A stretch of DNA of 64,000 bases. It comes from Acidobacteriota bacterium. GTDB lineage: Bacteria; Acidobacteriota; Terriglobia; 20CM-2-55-15. This document shows, one piece after another, positions 8,174-64,000 of this stretch; positions within the stretch are counted from its first letter, which is position 1; each line of letters opens with the position of its first letter. The notes beneath the pieces are model-generated. The model was not told the DNA's origin. It did not search any database and saw nothing but the letters and a program-made list of their open reading frames with translations. The translations under genes were made by a program, and so were the position numbers. The DNA is taken from NCBI GenBank assembly GCA_023265365.1, contig JAHFTY010000001.1:3656-67655 (forward strand). Direction: 5' to 3'.

Positions 8174-9319
8174 TTACTTGCCGAAGTATTCCTTGCGGGA
8201 TCGAACGTGGTACCGGGGGTTCTTCGGACGGATATCGATCCGATGCCACTTTCCGTCCTGAAGGGGATGGGTGGGGTAGTAACCGATGCTGTACTGGTTT
8301 CGAAGTTCGGAGGCGATTTCGTCCAGGATCTTCTCGACCTGATTCCCGCGGCCTTCCGTCCAGTTCCCGGACAACAACCATGCCTTGCCGCCGCTGGCAT
8401 CGGCGAATGAGTTGAGCACCATCATGTCGACACTGTCCGGATTCATGGGTCCGCCGCTCGTCGGGGTCGGGCGGCGCTGCTGGAAGGTGTAAGGCCTGCG
8501 CCCGGGGACAGGAATCGGGAACGGCAGGCTGCCGCCGCCGGGCAAAGGGATGCCGATTGTGCCTCCCGAGCCGCCCCGGCCACCGGGATATCGGCCGCCG
8601 GTCCCCGTGCCACCCCGGCCACCGGGAATGCCGACAGGACCTCCTGCCGGGCCGGTCGGAGGCATCGGAGAGGGCACTGGAATTCCTTCGGTCAGAACAC
8701 CGGTGTTGGAGGGCGATATGCCAAGGCAGTACACCAGCAACTCGGACTCTCGAACGGCCAGGGCCGCCTGATCGAAGGTGATATAGCTGGAAGTATCCTC
8801 GCCGTCGGTAATGAGAATGATGGCCTTCTTGTCGTGTTCGCCCTGCTTGATTTTCGTGAGGCTGAAATCCAAAGCCTCATAAAGCGCGGTGCCGCCTCCA
8901 ATCCGAACACGCCGCAAGGCGGAACTGAGGCGATCGCGATCCGAGGTGAAATCCTGGGAAAGAACGGGCCTGTCGGAGAAGGTGACCAGAAAAATGTCAT
9001 CGTCCTGGTGAACGGTCCGGATGAATCGCTCGACAGCCCCCGTCGCCGTCGCGATCTTTCGTTCCATGCTGCCGCTGGTATCCAGCGTGACGCCGACACT
9101 GACGGGAAGTTCATCGGACTGCGTCAGGTGGGCGATCGTCTGTGTCTGGCCGTCCTCCTGAACGATGAAGTCTTCGGCTGTCAGCCCCGGCACATAACGG
9201 CCCTGACTGTCAGTGACCGTTGCGACAACGTTGATCAGCGCGACATCGACCTTCAATTGGGCGAGGAGCACGGAACCTGACAGCAGAACCGTGGCGACTG
9301 CGATACCGAGCTGCCTCAT
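8174..9319 (-). CDS. Secreted von Willebrand factor A domain protein (VWFA-related Acidobacterial domain type)
   Basis: Signal peptide MRQLGIAVATVLLSGSVLLAQ, a VWA MIDAS-like DTSGSM motif, a long Gly/Pro-rich linker and a conserved C-terminus. The start was moved to Met39 of the track ORF. Confidence 0.8.
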   Translation of the reverse strand: MRQLGIAVATVLLSGSVLLAQLKVDVALINVVATVTDSQGRYVPGLTAEDFIVQEDGQTQTIAHLTQSDELPVSVGVTLDTSGSMERKIATATGAVERFIRTVHQDDDIFLVTFSDRPVLSQDFTSDRDRLSSALRRVRIGGGTALYEALDFSLTKIKQGEHDKKAIILITDGEDTSSYITFDQAALAVRESELLVYCLGISPSNTGVLTEGIPVPSPMPPTGPAGGPVGIPGGRGGTGTGGRYPGGRGGSGGTIGIPLPGGGSLPFPIPVPGRRPYTFQQRRPTPTSGGPMNPDSVDMMVLNSFADASGGKAWLLSGNWTEGRGNQVEKILDEIASELRNQYSIGYYPTHPLQDGKWHRIDIRPKNPRYHVRSRKEYFGK

Positions 9320-9407
9320 GGAATTGTCCCTCCCGGGACCGAAGACTGGTGCATTTTGACGTACCCACCAACGAGACGAAAGCAAATTGGTTGTATGATT
9401 TGAGACC

Positions 9408-10913
9408 GTGTTCAACAAAGTACTGGTTGCCAATCGAGGTGAAATTGCGGTTCGCGTGATCCGCGCCTGCAGGGAGATGGGAATCCGGACCGTCGCCGTC
9501 TACTCCGACGCCGACCGGGGAGCGCTCCACGTCAGGATGGCCGATGAAGCGTTCCCGATCGGACCCGCAGCGTCGAGAGAGAGCTATCTGGTGATCGAGA
9601 AGATCATCGGTGTCGCAAGAACCGCCCAGGCCGAAGCGATCCACCCGGGTTACGGGTTTCTTGCCGAAAATGCCGCCTTCGCCCGAGCGTGCGAGGACGC
9701 CGGCATCACTTTCATCGGACCATCCGCCGCTTCCATTTCGCTGATGGGATCCAAGGTCGAGTCGCGCCGGGCCGCCTCAAAGTTCGAGGTGCCGATGGTT
9801 CCGGGCACGTTGGACCCGGTGGAGTCTGAAGATGAGGCGTGCCGGATAGCGAAATCGATTGGATACCCCATCATGCTCAAGGCGTCGGCCGGAGGCGGAG
9901 GCAAGGGCCTTCGGTTCGTCCGGAACGAGGGAGAAATGGAGAGCGCCCTCCGCAATACGCGTTCGGAGGCCCTGGGTGCGTTTGGCGACTCCGCCGTGTA
10001 TATCGAGAAGTTTGTCGAGGAACCCCGGCACATCGAAATCCAGGTGCTGGCGGACAGACATGGCAACGCGATCTACCTGGGCGAACGCGAATGCACGATT
10101 CAAAGGCGTCATCAGAAGGTCATCGAAGAGTGTCCATCGCCCGTCGTGAACGCCGAACTTCGCCGCCAAATGGGTGAAGCGGCAATCCAGGTCGTGCGCG
10201 CGGCCGACTACCACAATGCCGGAACGGTGGAATTCCTCGTCGACCGGAACCTCCGGTTCTACTTCCTGGAAATGAACACCCGACTCCAGGTGGAACATCC
10301 CATCACGGAGATGGTGACCGGTATCGACCTGGTGAAGCAGCAGTTGCGCGTGGCCGCGGGTCATAAGCTGGAGATGGCTCAGGAAGACCTGACGATGCGC
10401 GGATCGGCCATTGAATGCCGCGTCTATGCGGAAGATCCGGACAACAACTTCTTTCCTTCTCCCGGTAGAATCACGCTGCTTCGTACGCCCTCCGGACCCG
10501 GCATTCGCGACGATGGCGGCGTTTACGAAGGGTGGACAGTCCCGATCGACTACGATCCGCTGATCTCCAAGCTTGTCGCCTGGGGAAGCACCCGGGACGA
10601 GGCGATCCATCGGATGCAGAGGGCGTTACAGGAGTACCAGGTTGAAGGAATCCAGACGAATATCTCGTTCTTCATGGAGATTCTTCAGGATGCCGACTTT
10701 CGAAAGGGCACATTTGACACCGGATTCATCGACCGCTGGCTGAAGACCAGGACGGGGGCCACCACGGTTTCGGAGACGGATCACGATCTGGCCCTGCTCG
10801 CTGCCGCCCTTCACCATGCCGATCGGTCGGCCCTGCCAGGCGATTCAGTCACGAGCCCAGCCGCAAATCCCTGGAAAGAGGCGGGACGGTTGGGGGCGAT
10901 GAGAAACCGATGA
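9408..10913 (+). CDS. accC: Biotin carboxylase subunit (AccC / acyl-CoA carboxylase alpha, BC domain)
   Basis: ATP-grasp biotin carboxylase motifs (NRGEIAVRVIRA, GYPIMLKASAGGGGKG, EMNTRLQVEH). GTG start. Confidence 0.9.
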   Translation: MFNKVLVANRGEIAVRVIRACREMGIRTVAVYSDADRGALHVRMADEAFPIGPAASRESYLVIEKIIGVARTAQAEAIHPGYGFLAENAAFARACEDAGITFIGPSAASISLMGSKVESRRAASKFEVPMVPGTLDPVESEDEACRIAKSIGYPIMLKASAGGGGKGLRFVRNEGEMESALRNTRSEALGAFGDSAVYIEKFVEEPRHIEIQVLADRHGNAIYLGERECTIQRRHQKVIEECPSPVVNAELRRQMGEAAIQVVRAADYHNAGTVEFLVDRNLRFYFLEMNTRLQVEHPITEMVTGIDLVKQQLRVAAGHKLEMAQEDLTMRGSAIECRVYAEDPDNNFFPSPGRITLLRTPSGPGIRDDGGVYEGWTVPIDYDPLISKLVAWGSTRDEAIHRMQRALQEYQVEGIQTNISFFMEILQDADFRKGTFDTGFIDRWLKTRTGATTVSETDHDLALLAAALHHADRSALPGDSVTSPAANPWKEAGRLGAMRNR

Positions 10914-58614: not shown

Positions 58615-58729
58615 AATTGACGCGGGTTTCGGAGAAATGCGGACGTTGGATTTCTTGTAATCACCGGGCCTTGGAAGCTCGATCTTATGCAACTCACTGC
58701 TGTTCGCGGATTTAGGCCCTGCACTTAAG

Positions 58730-58757
58730 TTGACTCCCTGACGGTTTTCGGTATAAT
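58730..58757 (+). promoter_or_regulatory. Sigma-70 promoter of csp (TTGACT-16-TATAAT)
   Basis: A near-consensus hexamer pair. The resulting ~90-nt 5' UTR is typical of cold-shock genes. Confidence 0.6.
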
Positions 58758-58852
58758 GCCCGCCGGTCTAAACTTCGTGGCTTCTTGTAGTTGCGTACCG
58801 ACCTGCTGCGAAGTTCAGGCGGGAAGAGTATCAAGTAAAGGAGTTTCGGGTA

Positions 58853-59062
58853 ATGAGCAAAGAGACGGGCAAAGTAAAATGGTTCAACAACAAAAAAGGA
58901 TTCGGGTTCATTGAGAGGGCTTCAGGCGGCGATGTTTTTGTCCATTATTCGGCAATTGTCAGTGATGGATATAAGACCCTGAAAGAGGGGGACAGTGTTG
59001 AGTTCACGATCACGCAGGGACCGAAAGGGTTCCAGGCGGAAAACGTCGAGAAACTCGCGTAA
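58853..59062 (+). CDS. cspA: Cold-shock protein (CspA family)
   Basis: [15 protein letters not shown] and VFVHYSAI are the RNP1/RNP2 motifs. AGGAG RBS. Confidence 0.9.
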
Positions 59063-59071
59063 AGATTCCAG

Positions 59072-59110
59072 GACCCTGCGGCCGCCTGACTCGCAGGGTC
59101 TTGATGTCTT
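59072..59110 (+). terminator. Putative intrinsic terminator of csp
   Basis: A 9-bp stem gaccctgcg/cgcagggtc with an 11-nt loop, followed by ttgatgtctt. Confidence 0.45.
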
Positions 59111-59119
59111 CGGTAAGTA

Positions 59120-61483
59120 ATGAAGACGAACGGCCCAGCCACACAGTCTCTTCGAACGGACCTCGAATTCTCATCGCAGCGACACCTCGGCAAAAACTAC
59201 ATCGTCGTCAAGGACCCGATCACCAAGCGCTATTTCCGTTTTACTGAAAACCAGAACGTGATTATCGATCTGCTGCGAGCGGAAAATGACCTCTCCGTGT
59301 TGGCCGCTCGCGCTTCCGAAAGGCTTGGAGGGTCGATCTCCATCAACACCGTTCAGGCCTTTCTTCAGTCTCTCGAAGGGAAGCTGCTGCTGGACACGGA
59401 AGCGGTTCGCGAAAAGCTGGCCGATCTGAAAAGCAAGAAACTCGAGGATCGAAATCTCCTTTACTGGAAACTCGCCTCGATTAACCCGGAGCGCGTTTTC
59501 GCCTGGCTTGTGCCTCGCACCAGATGGGCCTTCAGCCGATGGTTTCATGTTCTTGCATGCATACTGATCGTCTCCGGTTTTACGCTGAACTACATTCACC
59601 TAAGAGAACTGACCGTCGACGTTCAGGATCTGTTCAATTTGAATGGGCTGCTACTGGTGTGGCTCGTCACGATGATGGTCGTGACGCTCCATGAGTTCGC
59701 TCACGGACTGACCTGCTGCCATTTTGGAGGAAAGGTGCAGGAGATCGGCTTCATGCTGATCTATTTCCAACCCGCTTTTTACTGCGACGTGAGCGATTCG
59801 TGGATGTTCCCGCCCAAGAAACAGCGAATGCTCGTTACCTTTGCGGGCGGATATTTCCAGTTGTCGATTTGGGGTCTGTGCACGGTCCTATGGCGTATCA
59901 CCGCTCCGGACGCGTTCGTCAACCAGCTTGCTCTGGTCGTCATTGTCTTTGCGGGTGTCCAAACATTGGTGAACTTCAACCCGCTGATCAAACTCGACGG
60001 TTATTACATGCTAAGCGATTACCTGGAAATCCCCAACCTTCGGTCCAAGGCTGTTCATTCGATCTGGGATCGATTTACCGGACGCGGCCGGCCAATACCG
60101 TCTCGCGAGAGGCGGCCACTGATGATCTACGGACTCGCCTCGATCGCGTTTTCGACAACTTTGCTCATGTATGTTTATTCCGCTCTGTATACTTGGGCCA
60201 CTTCCCAGTATGCTTTTGCCGGCTTAGTTGGTTTCGTCATGTTCTCAACGTACACGCTTCGCAGGACGGCGGTGGAATCCATTTCCGGTATCCGGGCAGC
60301 AGTCACTCACGCTTCGTTTCGCAGGTACAGAAACGCGGCAATCCTTATCGCCGCCATCATCGTCGCCTACATCGGACATTGGGAACTCAAGATCCCCGCC
60401 GAATTCAAAGTGATCCCACGAAGCGAGATGACTGTGAGACCGGAGACCGGCGGAATCATCGTTGAGCTGATGGTCCACGAAGGAAGCCGTGTCGCGAAAG
60501 GTGAAGTTCTGGCCCGTCTCCGGGATTTCGAAAAGCAAAAAAAAGTGTCCGAAGTGAATGGCGAGCTTGAACAGAAAATGAGCGGGCTGGCCCTGCTTCG
60601 CGCCGGTGCCCGTCGCGAAGAAATCGATCGAAAACAAAAGCTGGTGGACACCAAACAGGTCGAACTCGCCAATTCGCGGCGGAATCAGGAACAGCGCAAC
60701 CAGCTCGGACAAAGCCTTGAGCGAAAGAAGTCCGAACTGCAACTGGATCAACAGATATTGGCCAGAGCGCACGAACTGTTCGCCGGCGGCTTGATTCCCC
60801 GAGCCGAACTGGAACGGTCGCAGACCGCGGTTACCGTGCGTGAGCGCGAAATCGGCGAAATCGAAGCGGCCATCCGTGTGGTCTCCGAGACCGGAGATCG
60901 CGAGTCGGATTTGAAATACCGGGAACTGGCGGAAGCCGAAAGTGAATTGCGCCTCATGCAGGCGGGCAGCCGGCCCGAACAGATCCGCGAAGCCGAGGCG
61001 GAGGTAAGGAAATTGCAGGAGCAGGCTCGAATTCTCAACTCGGAACTCGAAAAAACTGACATTCGTGCGCCCATCGACGGAGTGGTCAGCACACCGTTTG
61101 TCGAAAGAAAACTCAATCAAAGTCTGGCCGCTGGCGACGAGCTGTGCAAGATCGTCGACACCAGCCGGGTAACAATCGAAATGCTGGTGCCGGAAAAGGA
61201 GCTGGCAGACGTCCGCGCAGGAAACCATATCTCAATGAAACTCCGGAGCTTCCCATCGCTCGATGTTCAGGGCCGCGTCGATTTCATTGCGCCCGTCGCC
61301 CAGACGATCAACGGCCAACAGATGGTCGTCGTCCGAAGCGAGATTCCGAATGAGCAGATGACGTTGAAACCGGACATGACCGGTGTCGCCAAGATCTTTG
61401 CAGGCGATCGCCGAATCATCGATCTTTTCTCGAGACGTTTCATACGTTGGATTCGCACCGAATTCTGGGATCTCCTGCCTTAA
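59120..61483 (+). CDS. Fusion protein: PqqD-like peptide-recognition (RRE) domain + S2P/M50-family intramembrane zinc metalloprotease + HlyD-type periplasmic adaptor
   Basis: The region aa ~25-95 (YIVVKDPITKRYFRFTENQNVIIDLL...VQAFLQSLEGKLLL) resembles PqqD/RRE. A TM block carries HEFAHGLTCCHFGG (HExxH) and NFNPLIKLDGYYM (the NxxPxxxLDG S2P motif). The C-terminal ~330 aa has the HlyD pattern: a TM anchor, beta-strand, long coiled coil (EQRNQLGQSLERKKSELQL...), then IRAPIDGVVS... Confidence 0.6.
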   Translation: MKTNGPATQSLRTDLEFSSQRHLGKNYIVVKDPITKRYFRFTENQNVIIDLLRAENDLSVLAARASERLGGSISINTVQAFLQSLEGKLLLDTEAVREKLADLKSKKLEDRNLLYWKLASINPERVFAWLVPRTRWAFSRWFHVLACILIVSGFTLNYIHLRELTVDVQDLFNLNGLLLVWLVTMMVVTLHEFAHGLTCCHFGGKVQEIGFMLIYFQPAFYCDVSDSWMFPPKKQRMLVTFAGGYFQLSIWGLCTVLWRITAPDAFVNQLALVVIVFAGVQTLVNFNPLIKLDGYYMLSDYLEIPNLRSKAVHSIWDRFTGRGRPIPSRERRPLMIYGLASIAFSTTLLMYVYSALYTWATSQYAFAGLVGFVMFSTYTLRRTAVESISGIRAAVTHASFRRYRNAAILIAAIIVAYIGHWELKIPAEFKVIPRSEMTVRPETGGIIVELMVHEGSRVAKGEVLARLRDFEKQKKVSEVNGELEQKMSGLALLRAGARREEIDRKQKLVDTKQVELANSRRNQEQRNQLGQSLERKKSELQLDQQILARAHELFAGGLIPRAELERSQTAVTVREREIGEIEAAIRVVSETGDRESDLKYRELAEAESELRLMQAGSRPEQIREAEAEVRKLQEQARILNSELEKTDIRAPIDGVVSTPFVERKLNQSLAAGDELCKIVDTSRVTIEMLVPEKELADVRAGNHISMKLRSFPSLDVQGRVDFIAPVAQTINGQQMVVVRSEIPNEQMTLKPDMTGVAKIFAGDRRIIDLFSRRFIRWIRTEFWDLLP

Positions 61484-61838
61484 AGGACTGCCGTCCTACC
61501 ACAAGAGCATAATTCTTGCGAAAGTTTCGGTATTTTTATTCCAGTTTTTCCGCTCTTTAGCTGTGACAAGCGGAAACTGAATTTCCTTTGCACAGGGCAA
61601 ACCCGTCGAAAGGCGGGGACGCAAAGCTTCGAGACTACCGTCCCACGAATAAAAAGATCATGGATTATTCGTGTCGACCACGTCGGTCGGGCCGCCACAG
61701 CGCGTGAGCTTTGGAGCCGTCTTGTTTTCCACTGTTTCGCAAACCCGGAATCGGGCACTCGTCCGACGTGTGAATTCGGGTCTAAACGTCGCTCAATCGT
61801 CGAAAACGTTTTGTTCTAATCCGTCCCTGGAGGAAAAC

Positions 61839-61940
61839 ATGATCGAGAAAGATGCCGCACTTTTGCTGGATATCGTCGAAGTCGAAGAACTTGAACTGAA
61901 AATCGCGCCGGACAGCGGTTCCGTGCCGATAATCGAGTAG
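61839..61940 (+). CDS. Candidate small peptide gene (33 aa, MIEKDAALLLDIVEVEELELKIAPDSGSVPIIE)
   Basis: A GGAGG RBS sits 5 nt upstream of the ATG. A hairpin plus T-rich tract follows the TAG within ~15 nt. The peptide is acidic and helix-prone, with no Cys. A longer GTG-initiated form (61671) lacks an RBS. Confidence 0.35.
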   Translation: MIEKDAALLLDIVEVEELELKIAPDSGSVPIIE

Positions 61941-61952
61941 ATACTCTCGGAG

Positions 61953-61996
61953 TGAGAGGGGCGAACTTCCCATCGTCCCTCTCATTGTTTGTCTCC
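61953..61996 (+). terminator. Putative intrinsic terminator after the small peptide ORF
   Basis: Stem tgagaggg/ccctctca with a loop, then ttgtttgtctcc. Confidence 0.4.
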
Positions 61997-62021
61997 ATGC
62001 AGACTCAATCCGTAATCCGCG

Positions 62022-64000
62022 ATGAGATTTAGCCAGCTATCGCGTTCGTGCCGGCTCTATCTGGTTGCCGTGTATCTACTCGGCATACCCTTTGCCGCGC
62101 TCTGTTTTTTTCCCGCCGGAAGTTACACCGCACTCTGGATTCTGTTGACCCTGACATCCGCGTTTGTCGCAACGATTAACGTTCGATTGCCGAAGATTTC
62201 TTCAGTCATCTCGATGGGAGACGTCTTCATCATATTGGCCCTCACTCGATTCGGGCCGGGACCGGCATTAGTCACCTACTGGGTGGACATCTTCGCCGCC
62301 CACCTGGTGGACGTTGTGCGCAAAACGGGACTGCGCGGCCTCGCAAAGGTCATGTGGTACCGTTTCGTGTTCAACCTCGCCTGCTGCGCGATTTCCGTTT
62401 GGATCATGTGGAAAGCTTACGGACTGGGCATGGCTGCGGAATTTGGTTCTCCGGCCAATCAAGTGCTGGCTCTTGGCGGAGTCGCGCTCGCCTGGTTCCT
62501 GGCCAACACGCTGACCGTCTCCATGGCGATCTCATTCTGGTCGAATCAGAAGTTTGCAGTCGTGTGGCGCGAAGGCGTCGGCCTTTATCTGCTCAATTTC
62601 TTCGGGTCGGCCGCGGCCGCCGGGTTGATTTCTCTCTTCTACGAAAGAGCCGGCTTCTTTGTGATGTTGCTCTCACTGCCGATCGCCGTGGTGCTGTACC
62701 AGCTCTACCTTTTCAACTTTCAGAAGTACGAACAGGCCCAGAAGCATATTCACGATCTGAACACGCTTTACCTGGAGACCATCGAAGTGATGGCCAGCGT
62801 AGTTGACGCGAAGGATCCATACACGCACGGTCATATCCGGCGTGTGCAGGTGTACTCGGTATGTCTTGCGGAGTGCCTCGGTATCACGGACGAAAACCAT
62901 TTGATGGCGATTCGGGCCGGCGCATTGCTACACGACATTGGGAAAATTGCGATACCCGAATACATTCTGAACAAGCCGACGGTGCTCACCGCGAACGAAT
63001 ACGAGAAAATGAAAATACATCCCGTCGTGGGCGCGAACATGTTGAAGGGCATCCATTTTCCTTTTCCGGTCGAGCCCTTGGTGAAGTCCCATCATGAGCG
63101 GTGGGACGGCAAAGGATACCCCGAAGGGCTTAGCGGCGAAGCGATCCCCATCAGCGCGCGCATCCTTTCGGTTGCCGATTGCTATGACGCCCTTACCACA
63201 AATCGTCCCTATCGATCGCCGATGCCGCACGAACAGTTGGTTCAGTTCTTCCAGCGTGAGGCCGGCCGTGCATACGACCCTTCCGTGATCGATGCTCTAA
63301 TCAAGAATCTGGACACGCTTCAGGCGAGGGTCGCGGGGGCTCACATTCCCACGACCAGTGTCTGGGACATCGACGATGCGAGCGCGAACTCCGGAAAGGA
63401 GACGATGCGTCCGCTGGAGCATGTTCAGCCAACGCGAACTTACGACCAGGCGCTGAGGGGAAGTCCTGAAGTCCAACGCGAGCTTTATTCTGTTTTCGAA
63501 TTCGCTCGCGCTGAAAGCTACTGTCTTTCGGAACGAGACGTCCTCTTCTTCATGGGAGCAAAGCTCGAAGCGCTGGTACGTTTTGATGCCGCCGTTTTCT
63601 ATCTTGCGGACGACGAAAGCAGCACCCTGACGGCAAAACATGTAATTGGCAGCGCACAGGAAGGCCTCGTGAAGCGCTCCTTGAAACTCGATCAAAAGCT
63701 CAGCGGCTGGGTGGCGGTGAATAACCAATCGTTGTCCAATCTGCCTCCATTTCCCGACTTTCTTTCCCATCCTGAACCCAAGCCTAACTTTGAAAACTCC
63801 TGCATCGTCCCCCTGAATAAGGAGGGCGTCGTTCTCGGTACTCTCTCGCTCTATCGAAAAGAGAAAATTCCCTTCGCGGAAGAAGAATTCCGGCGGCTCG
63901 AAATCGTCGCGTCGCAAACCAGCCTGGCACTCCATCGCGTCCGCGAGACGTCCGGCGACGAAGAGTTTTTGGTCGATACGACAACAGGCGTGGCGAACGG
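62022..64000 (+). CDS. Membrane-anchored HD-GYP phosphodiesterase with C-terminal GAF domain; partial (runs off window end)
   Basis: The frame is open from ATG 62022 to the window end, so it is absent from the ORF track. It has ~6-7 N-terminal TM helices. The HD domain carries HGHIRRV...LLHDIGK...HHERWDGKGYP (HD-GYP signature). A GAF-like region follows. Confidence 0.8.
   Translation, partial: MRFSQLSRSCRLYLVAVYLLGIPFAALCFFPAGSYTALWILLTLTSAFVATINVRLPKISSVISMGDVFIILALTRFGPGPALVTYWVDIFAAHLVDVVRKTGLRGLAKVMWYRFVFNLACCAISVWIMWKAYGLGMAAEFGSPANQVLALGGVALAWFLANTLTVSMAISFWSNQKFAVVWREGVGLYLLNFFGSAAAAGLISLFYERAGFFVMLLSLPIAVVLYQLYLFNFQKYEQAQKHIHDLNTLYLETIEVMASVVDAKDPYTHGHIRRVQVYSVCLAECLGITDENHLMAIRAGALLHDIGKIAIPEYILNKPTVLTANEYEKMKIHPVVGANMLKGIHFPFPVEPLVKSHHERWDGKGYPEGLSGEAIPISARILSVADCYDALTTNRPYRSPMPHEQLVQFFQREAGRAYDPSVIDALIKNLDTLQARVAGAHIPTTSVWDIDDASANSGKETMRPLEHVQPTRTYDQALRGSPEVQRELYSVFEFARAESYCLSERDVLFFMGAKLEALVRFDAAVFYLADDESSTLTAKHVIGSAQEGLVKRSLKLDQKLSGWVAVNNQSLSNLPPFPDFLSHPEPKPNFENSCIVPLNKEGVVLGTLSLYRKEKIPFAEEEFRRLEIVASQTSLALHRVRETSGDEEFLVDTTTGVAN

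Follow-up and report, generated by a model that had tools for sequence, protein, structure and literature searches.

What is the function of a 33-codon open reading frame (ORF) that lies next to the gene of a protein fusing a peptide-recognition domain, an intramembrane protease and an export adaptor? The question is raised by a 64,000-nt stretch of the forward strand of an Acidobacteriota bacterium (contig JAHFTY010000001.1 of assembly GCA_023265365.1), called the window below. It carries the small ORF at positions 61839-61940 (+), between the gene of a 787-aa fusion protein and an HD-GYP-domain gene. The fusion protein combines a RiPP recognition element (RRE; RiPP, a peptide made by ribosomes and modified after its translation), a site-2 protease (S2P) of the M50 type and a HlyD-type adaptor. 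Judged from sequence comparisons, the small ORF probably encodes a precursor peptide whose synthesis is gated by cyclic di-GMP (c-di-GMP), whose leader would be bound by the RRE and cut off after the residues IAP, and whose core is probably exported.

The small ORF and its peptide family

The features of the ORF and of its immediate flanks are as follows.
61829-61833 (+), Shine-Dalgarno (SD) sequence GGAGG, followed by the 5-nt spacer AAAAC and the ATG at 61839; an SD precedes the homologous ORF in every related locus.
61839-61910 (+), leader, residues M1-P24 of the small ORF, with the recognition motif VEELELKIAP at its end; E, L, E and P are invariant across phyla.
61911-61940 (+), predicted core of 9 aa, DSGSVPIIE, with a net charge of -2, and TAG; cleavage after P24 is predicted from the P(-1) of daptides.
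61951-61996 (+), stem-loop and interrupted T-tract past the ORF, located by a terminator scan and RNAfold; it probably terminates transcription in part or stabilises the 3' end of the short transcript.

The product of the small ORF (TAG stop at 61938-61940), MIEKDAALLLDIVEVEELELKIAPDSGSVPIIE, has nine acidic and two basic residues. The first-pass annotation of this DNA had taken the SD and ATG together with the hairpin and T-tract as the signature of a small, highly expressed peptide gene. We found, however, 11 occurrences of GGAGG-N4-8-ATG in the window against 11.1 expected from shuffled sequences. A ribosome-binding site with an ATG is within chance, and therefore the reality of the ORF was settled by comparing related sequences; conservation is what takes the ORF beyond chance.

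For this comparison we used 74 loci encoding relatives of the 787-aa fusion protein, mostly from metagenome-assembled genomes of Acidobacteriota (Solibacteraceae, 'Sulfopaludibacter', Terriglobia). The 33-codon ORF with GGAGG-N5-ATG is present in the window as it had been described, and tblastn together with a motif scan detected a homologous short ORF at the same position, with its own SD and ATG just 3' of the fusion gene, in 12 loci (L002, L003, L004, L006, L008, L010, L013, L014, L015, L016, L018 and L022). Common to all 12 is [IV]EELExKIAP, and the 8-10 residues behind it form a variable tail. Across the ten codons of the motif in these loci, pairwise differences at codon positions 1, 2 and 3 numbered 88, 60 and 287, respectively, and the codon differences were synonymous in 220 cases and non-synonymous in 117. 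The invariant Ala of the motif is encoded by four different codons, Pro by three and Leu by four. The third-position bias and the synonymous excess indicate selection on the peptide, not on the RNA, and therefore translation of the ORF. By this codon-level evidence, the small ORF is a real, translated gene under peptide-level purifying selection. Gene calling on an independent Logan contig also yields the exact window peptide.

Other frames over the region were tried as well. An 89-aa frame with a GTG start (61671-61940) was rejected; it overlaps a riboswitch aptamer (described below), and conservation begins only from the SD and ATG on. The minus-strand ORFs at 61782-61985 and 61816-61998 had no support. 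No sigma-70-like promoter was detected near the small ORF, including the region 61484-61586.

Scans of the window peptide against Pfam and NCBIfam gave no match even at E<=10. Among 8,000 candidates scored with a profile built from 16 locus-derived peptides, E<=0.01 was reached by more than 1,056 clusters formed at 90% identity, all of 29-79 aa; their members have no Pfam domain and no NCBIfam name, and none is called other than 'hypothetical'. When 1.84 billion cluster representatives were searched exhaustively with HMMER, 236 clusters formed at 50% identity reached E<=0.001, and their lengths are 30-135 aa throughout. Members of the family come mostly from soil and sediment metagenomes. A literature search with the family motif strings returned irrelevant word matches only.

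Throughout the family, the N-terminal part through ELEx[KR]IAP is conserved, and the part downstream of it differs by subtype. The window peptide is built in the same way, with residues 1-24 conserved and a tail of about nine residues variable, in agreement with the acidic, leader-like N-terminus and distinct tail noted earlier. Cores of subtype A (Acidobacteria) are 8-9 aa long, acidic and variable, of the form SG[SQ]-hydrophobic-x-x-[DE][DE] (for example, SGSWAVDE, SGSAAVTED and SGYLANDD), and they end in D or E in 52 of 73 cases and in T in 2 of 73. Subtype B (the Nitrospirota type) has a conserved core, SQPPGLLGYEGQPGNQGGPQHHP. Multi-unit relatives carry up to four repeats of a unit made of VEELExxIAP and a G..NHNETL(V/I) core, and every core in them is directly preceded by the motif. 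In other family proteins several GYEGQPGNQG cores stand behind one EELE-type leader, and the C-terminus is often HHP; a locus of Zixibacteria (L024) has five tandem gene copies of a 22-codon version. Since the motif stands before each core, the cores are variable and multi-copy arrays occur, the motif behaves like a precursor recognition or cleavage sequence. The curated RiPP leader model Amm_Lyn_leader matches the family member P0001 at 30.9 bits (cutoff 30) and P0090 at 19 bits.

The proteins with multiple units or repeated cores are metagenomic (P0288, P0297, P0303, P0378, P0335 and P0241-P0244), and their core types are conserved. One further two-unit member, MSKHHIDVVIEELESKTAPSAAVALIDRKLSTVEELEDKTAPCGLWALCD, is encoded at positions 2490-2642 of a phage-like 17-kb contig (L084, Logan SRR14784206), which encodes a protein-primed DNA polymerase B (phrog_1907, E 7e-52) along with numerous small ORFs and lacks a fusion gene. 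This contig may be a mobile element bearing a mimic of a host peptide.

Immediately past the ORF, the terminator scan placed a stem-loop at 61951-61986; 7 of its 14 pairs are G-C, the loop size is 8, and GTTTGTCTCC forms the tail. The fold of the 84 nt past the stop has an RNAfold energy of about -32 kcal/mol. The first-pass annotation had assigned the ORF its own terminator, starting about 13 nt past the stop. A strong hairpin is indeed there, but its stem begins 8-10 nt past the stop, and because its T-tract is interrupted (TTGTTTGTCTCC) the hairpin is terminator-like and not a textbook intrinsic terminator. Hairpins of unrelated sequence were predicted by RNAfold past the stop in L003, L008, L010, L013, L014, L015 and L018. 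The structure past the ORF is thus kept in most relatives while its sequence is not.

The fusion protein as probable partner of the peptide

The domains of the partner gene are arranged as follows.
59120-61483 (+), gene of the 787-aa fusion protein: RRE, site-2 protease/M50 and HlyD-type periplasmic adaptor.
59147-59389 (+), RRE, about aa 10-90 of the fusion protein.
59477-60319 (+), site-2 protease/M50 membrane domain, about aa 120-400.
60407-61480 (+), HlyD-type periplasmic adaptor, about aa 430-787.

The earlier description of this protein as an RRE-S2P-HlyD fusion held in all three parts. The RRE is PqqD-like, with a three-stranded sheet followed by three helices and a fold similar to that of solved RREs. 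The protease part has the S2P fold, with HExxH (H191, E192, H195) and NxxPxxxxDG (N285, P288, D293, G294) in membrane helices; both catalytic motifs are invariant in 31 homologues. The C-terminal half is of the HlyD-adaptor type, a class with barrel-sandwich, coiled-coil hairpin and beta-barrel domains, and it matches HlyD_D23 (81.7 bits, cutoff 30) and HlyD_3 (64.3 bits) in Pfam and RND_mfp TIGR01730 (114.7 bits, cutoff 94.9) in NCBIfam. We found no description in the literature of an RRE-S2P-HlyD fusion or of an M50/HlyD/RiPP fusion.

The closest known system is that of the daptides. Their leader motif is ELExMEAP, and the leader is removed by an RRE-fused intramembrane site-2 protease. For leader-dependent processing by DapB/C, residues E(-8), L(-7), M(-4) and P(-1) are important; it is the RRE domain of DapB/C to which the leader binds. 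The N-terminal half of the fusion protein matches NF041824 (daptide_HExxH, 'daptide biosynthesis intramembrane metalloprotease') at 232.3 bits (E 9e-69, positions 16-360 of 379), below the equivalog cutoff of 300 bits. Judged by this match, the protein is clearly homologous to the daptide peptidase and is not an equivalog of it. Against the model of the YydH/LiaK epipeptide protease the match was weak, at 49 bits.

The likeness to the daptide pair (DapA/MpaA and DapP/MpaP) extends to the substrate. Both systems have a short precursor with an acidic leader, and the motif is ELExKIAP here (ELELKIAP in the window, a variant form of the daptide motif), in which E(-8), L(-7), E(-6), A(-2) and P(-1) keep the daptide register and the residues at -4 and -3 are different. 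In both, the peptidase is an N-terminal RRE with an M50/site-2 protease, homologous at 232 bits, and some relatives of the window locus likewise have several precursor genes per locus. On the other hand, the C-terminal Thr that is invariant in daptides, where it is converted to an amine, is absent, and the window peptide ends in Glu. None of the genes for DapB (DUF-RRE), DapC (alcohol dehydrogenase), DapD (aminotransferase) and DapM (methyltransferase) was found in the window or in five independent contexts. Unlike in daptide clusters, there is no adjacent ABC transporter, the core consists of 8-9 acidic residues instead of an aliphatic helix of about 20 residues, the peptidase carries a C-terminal HlyD adaptor, and the hosts are Acidobacteriota and Nitrospirota, not Actinomycetota and Bacillota. 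Expression is probably controlled by a riboswitch here; the regulation of daptide clusters lies outside the comparison. With no C-terminal Thr, no tailoring genes and a peptidase below the equivalog cutoff, the present system is not a daptide. By sequence, what it resembles is the leader-and-peptidase part of a daptide cluster.

Two other systems are similar in part. In peptidase-containing ABC transporters (PCATs) with double-glycine leaders, a single membrane machine, in cooperation with a HlyD-type adaptor, both cleaves a short and often unmodified peptide and exports it. The cut-and-export logic proposed here, with such an adaptor, and the E-L pattern of the leader at -8/-7 are alike. However, an M50 metalloprotease with an RRE stands here in place of a C39 cysteine protease, and the adaptor is fused to the protease, not to the transporter. 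The leader ends in AP with no GG motif, the scans found no C39 or ABC domain, and there is no ABC ATPase in the fusion protein or in its neighbourhood. The second system is that of the enterococcal pheromones processed by Eep/RseP, proteases that the first-pass annotation had invoked; with it goes the YydH/LiaK epipeptide protease. There too an M50/site-2 protease matures a small peptide. The analogy fits poorly. Eep substrates are hydrophobic lipoprotein signal-peptide fragments, whereas the peptide here is acidic with an RRE-type leader, and no radical-SAM epimerase (YydG) as in the epipeptide system is found nearby.

How firmly the peptide belongs to the fusion protein depends on their distribution. 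Within the acidobacterial clade the order queA-cspA-fusion-peptide-HD-GYP is syntenic, and the HD-GYP gene keeps its place in 11 loci. Synteny inside a clade is by itself little proof of a functional pairing. Beyond the clade, the peptide ORF lies 5' of the fusion gene in 'Candidatus Sulfobium' (Nitrospirota), L020, L028/L080, L081-83 (with two paralogous peptides) and L086, and 3' of it in the loci of Zixibacteria and Ignavibacteriales. A hidden Markov model of the leader, run against six-frame segments of 84 loci and of the 64-kb window, gave matches on the strand of the fusion gene only; all of them adjoin the fusion gene except one (L019, about 5 kb away), and the window has a single match. 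Because the adjacency recurs across phyla, in other gene orders and surroundings, the comparison supports a pairing that is functional and goes beyond inherited gene order. The conservation and synteny for which the first-pass annotation had proposed a check are thus present, with the ORF beside the fusion gene both in relatives and in other phyla. The cross-phylum pairing, together with the daptide-like leader motif, also argues for its suggestion that the peptide is a candidate substrate of the fusion protein.

The riboswitch and the c-di-GMP setting

Between the fusion gene and the small ORF, and downstream of the latter, we located the following features.
61587-61700 (+), c-di-GMP-I (GEMM-I) aptamer, which scores 59.3 bits (E 1.7e-12) with Rfam RF03167, a model whose gathering score is 59.
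61690-61730 (+), weak terminator-like expression platform; the 5' strand of its hairpin, GGCCGCCACAGC, doubles as the aptamer's 3' strand; GUCUUGUUUUCC comes next.
61765-61785 (+), decayed remnant of a mini-ORF, recognised by alignment; its ATG and SD are gone in the window.
62022-64000 (+), running off the window, HD-GYP gene with a membrane domain, HD-GYP and GAF; Pfam HD_5 131.5 bits, GAF_2 40.2 bits.

The small ORF had been called isolated, and immediately downstream of the fusion gene. The riboswitch between the two genes contradicts the former and would make the ORF a regulated unit; the latter is right in that the genes adjoin, and loose in that the gap is 355 nt and contains the aptamer. 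The gap from the small ORF to the HD-GYP gene is 81 nt, with the hairpin inside. The aptamer, of clan CL00126, lies on the gene strand in the 5' untranslated region (UTR), and its score passes the gathering threshold marginally. Relatives have at the same place one or, more often, two aptamers, which score 45-77 bits with RF01051 (threshold 35) or 59-65 bits with RF03167. In the alignment, the window aptamer groups with the second ('ap2') copies of the relatives and keeps the invariant blocks GCAAA and CGCAAAGC. The Rfam label 'GGC variant' was not used; the score is at threshold, and the consensus G of RF03167 (GCGAAG) is A (GCAAAG) in the window and in all relatives, which is the base of ordinary c-di-GMP-I sequences. 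Upstream of the aptamer, the 103 nt at 61484-61586 are AT-rich with a 7-bp hairpin (TTCCGCT...AGCGGAA). The window has apparently lost its first aptamer, because the relatives carry theirs in this region.

A tandem arrangement is common for the class, with 347 doublets recorded (PMC9481103). The present locus resembles other c-di-GMP-I riboswitches in having an aptamer at or above the Rfam threshold in a 5' UTR, tandem pairs in relatives and a terminator-like hairpin, weak in the window, overlapping the aptamer's 3' strand. It differs in the controlled gene, which would here be that of a precursor peptide of 30-35 codons (with, in relatives, a mini-ORF of 7-10 codons). Our literature search found no link between this riboswitch class and a leader-peptide or RiPP-type gene.

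A clearer terminator than that of the window is seen in L003, L004, L008, L022 and L027, where the aptamer 3' strand GGGCUGCC can pair with the downstream GGCAGCCC and a U-tract follows. Since ligand binding should block a terminator that uses the 3' strand of the aptamer, we infer an ON switch. A global fold of the 5' UTR was uninformative (z = -0.5), and the local folds alone were useful.

The conserved mini-ORF of the relatives lies between the riboswitch and the peptide ORF, has its own strong SD and encodes MYGVIWV*, MFYGVIWV*, MKATFAVIWI* or MNENYGVIWI*. Its positions are, for example, about 8816-8839 in L008, about 8811-8834 in L010 and, in L004, about 8884-8916 and 9082-9114. Synonymous changes were observed in it among L004, L005, L006, L007, L008, L010, L013, L014, L015, L018 and L022. 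A second peptide, hydrophobic and pheromone-like, is one possibility for its product; the other is that it acts as a regulatory upstream ORF (uORF). Peptides such as MYGVIWV look more like Eep-type pheromones than the small-ORF product does; this is the mini-ORF that the window has lost. The YGVIW motif also occurs fused to the N-terminus of many members of the peptide family (MKENYGVIWTE...) and, at the other end, to the L003 peptide (C-terminus ...HYSVIWI*).

Other genes linked to c-di-GMP are found near the pair, and the HD-GYP gene 3' of the small ORF encodes a c-di-GMP enzyme. Orthologues of the HD-GYP gene encode 816 aa with a GGDEF domain at the end; the one in L003 has HD_5, GAF_2 and GGDEF (95.3 bits). 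In the Sulfobium loci, an aptamer likewise precedes the peptide ORF. These loci also encode a 102-aa PilZ-domain protein (L076 12686-12994 and L077 10492-10800), with PilZ and an AraC-type response regulator 3' of the fusion gene. The PilZ neighbour is a second, independent link of the peptide/protease pair to c-di-GMP signalling.

Readings of the locus

In the proposed mechanism, high c-di-GMP would stabilise the aptamer and hold its 3' strand, so that the terminator would not form and transcription would read through into the small ORF. The hairpin at 61951-61986 would then end or stabilise a short, abundant transcript, with some read-through to the HD-GYP/GAF/GGDEF gene. The leader motif E(-8)L(-7)E(-6)xKIA(-2)P(-1) would dock on the cytoplasmic RRE of the fusion protein, a step suggested by the co-occurrence of the two genes. 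The membrane-embedded M50 metalloprotease would cut past ...IAP and free the short acidic core DSGSVPIIE; by analogy with the daptides, the matching motif register and the homologous peptidase halves lead us to expect cleavage past P24. The fused HlyD-type periplasmic adaptor would most likely hand the core outward via a partner channel. The coding ORF, the leader/core family, the co-occurrence with the fusion gene, the domains and intact motifs of that protein and the aptamer are observations; binding to the RRE, the cleavage site, export of the core, the ON polarity of the switch and the role of the product are predictions. Export is conjectural and the weakest link of the proposal, because no conserved transporter partner is nearby.

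Several observations weigh against this mechanism. No ABC, RND, MFS or TolC gene is conserved beside the pair in the window or in the other contexts examined, although such a partner may be encoded elsewhere. The peptide ORF is missing from some fusion-gene loci (L011 and L012, at 48-52% identity, L023, L025 and L026), and a subfamily of fusion proteins of about 1,100 aa (about 25-28% identity), mostly from Acidobacteriaceae and from Acidoferrum/Acidoferrales lineages of Terriglobales, does without it; a search beside these homologues gave no recognisable peptide partner. Conversely, the loci L002/L016, L015, L020, L021, L024, L029, L080 and L081 have the peptide and no detectable aptamer. The window itself is not the best example of its kind: its aptamer scores only at the threshold, the hairpin of its expression platform is weak (RNAfold -12 kcal/mol), the hairpin past the ORF has no clean U-tract, and the locus looks reduced, with one of two aptamers and the mini-ORF lost. 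Its core DSGSVPIIE is a somewhat atypical member of subtype A, and its peptide matches none of the curated leader models, including Amm_Lyn_leader.

Among the alternatives, the one that survives best, though we consider it unlikely, is that the peptide binds the RRE as a regulator or cofactor and is not exported. It would then be a c-di-GMP-responsive inhibitor or activator of the protease-adaptor toward another substrate. The very short, acidic core would suit such a role, as would the absence of tailoring enzymes and of a dedicated transporter near the pair, and the c-di-GMP linkage (riboswitch, HD-GYP and PilZ neighbours) suggests a regulatory circuit. A regulator is, however, made less likely by cores that are variable and of several unrelated types, by the multi-unit precursors and tandem arrays typical of products, and by a motif that directly precedes each core like a cleavage signal.

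Poorer still are the chances of a true daptide-type or otherwise tailored RiPP with its modifying enzymes encoded elsewhere in the genome. The daptide-like leader motif and peptidase speak for it, as do the family members that match the Amm_Lyn RiPP leader model. But the C-terminus is Glu in the window and mostly D/E in the family, where daptides have their invariant Thr. Moreover, neither the roughly 20 kb upstream in the window nor any of the five independent contexts has DapB/DapC/DapD/DapM-like genes, and the sole nearby methyltransferase is of the PUA-domain RNA type.

A cis-acting uORF or leader peptide, the translation of which, and not its product, would tune the downstream HD-GYP gene, is very improbable. 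The ORF is placed as such an element would be: the riboswitch lies before it and the HD-GYP gene after it, the 81-nt gap to that gene contains a hairpin, and the gene order is kept in 11 acidobacterial loci. Yet the peptide is conserved across phyla in loci where the HD-GYP gene is absent and the ORF precedes the fusion gene, and it is the amino-acid sequence that is under selection. As for a chance ORF in the riboswitch-controlled 5' UTR of the HD-GYP gene, the chance-level frequency of SD-ATG patterns and the lack of a nearby sigma-70-like promoter would allow it, but it is effectively refuted by the codon-position bias, by a frame, start and SD that the 12 loci have in common and by the size of the family, with its more than 1,000 members.

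The precursor-peptide reading can be carried further, to a possible but rather doubtful extension. The pair could be a new leader-dependent maturation and export machine, with the RRE-guided S2P-HlyD protein in place of a peptidase-ABC transporter, that releases short, unmodified, pherotype-like peptides under induction by intracellular c-di-GMP through the riboswitch. The adjacent membrane HD-GYP/GAF/GGDEF enzyme, or in Nitrospirota the PilZ protein, might complete a loop for feedback or sensing, and the MYGVIWV mini-peptide could belong to the same circuit. A second messenger would then be directly coupled to extracellular peptide signalling in soil Acidobacteriota. To our knowledge, almost no signalling peptides have been characterised in this phylum.

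The more restrained precursor-peptide reading would, if true, already extend the pair of a daptide-type leader and an RRE-site-2 protease to Gram-negative phyla, without tailoring enzymes and with a fused export adaptor, and would show the re-use of leader-peptide systems. Biofilm and motility signalling would be linked to peptide production in Acidobacteriota. More than 1,000 unannotated clusters gain a testable role, with a predicted recognition motif, cleavage site and cognate enzyme. We found no prior description of a precursor-type peptide behind a c-di-GMP riboswitch, which would make it a new class of riboswitch-controlled gene. What sets the locus apart is this link of a riboswitch to a peptide, a protease-adaptor fusion of an unusual kind and an unannotated family of such size.

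Around the pair, the neighbours in the window are genes for ClpB, Hsp20, the PUA-RNA methyltransferase, QueA, CspA and the HD-GYP protein; no transporter or tailoring genes were found within about 20 kb upstream in the window. The locus tolerates insertions, as seen from added DNA in two relatives. In L018, a ~1.6-kb insertion with a transposase-like ORF (8882-10440) lies between a truncated second aptamer and the mini-ORF/peptide ORF, and in L022 the peptide ORF and the HD-GYP gene are about 2 kb apart. Upstream of the fusion gene, positions 58691-59106 (+) of the window weakly resemble the cspA thermoregulator of Rfam, at 26.1 bits (E 8e-4) against a threshold of 78; the match takes in both the 5' UTR and the cold-shock protein gene (58853-59062); a similar sub-threshold match, of 31.9 bits, was observed in L015.

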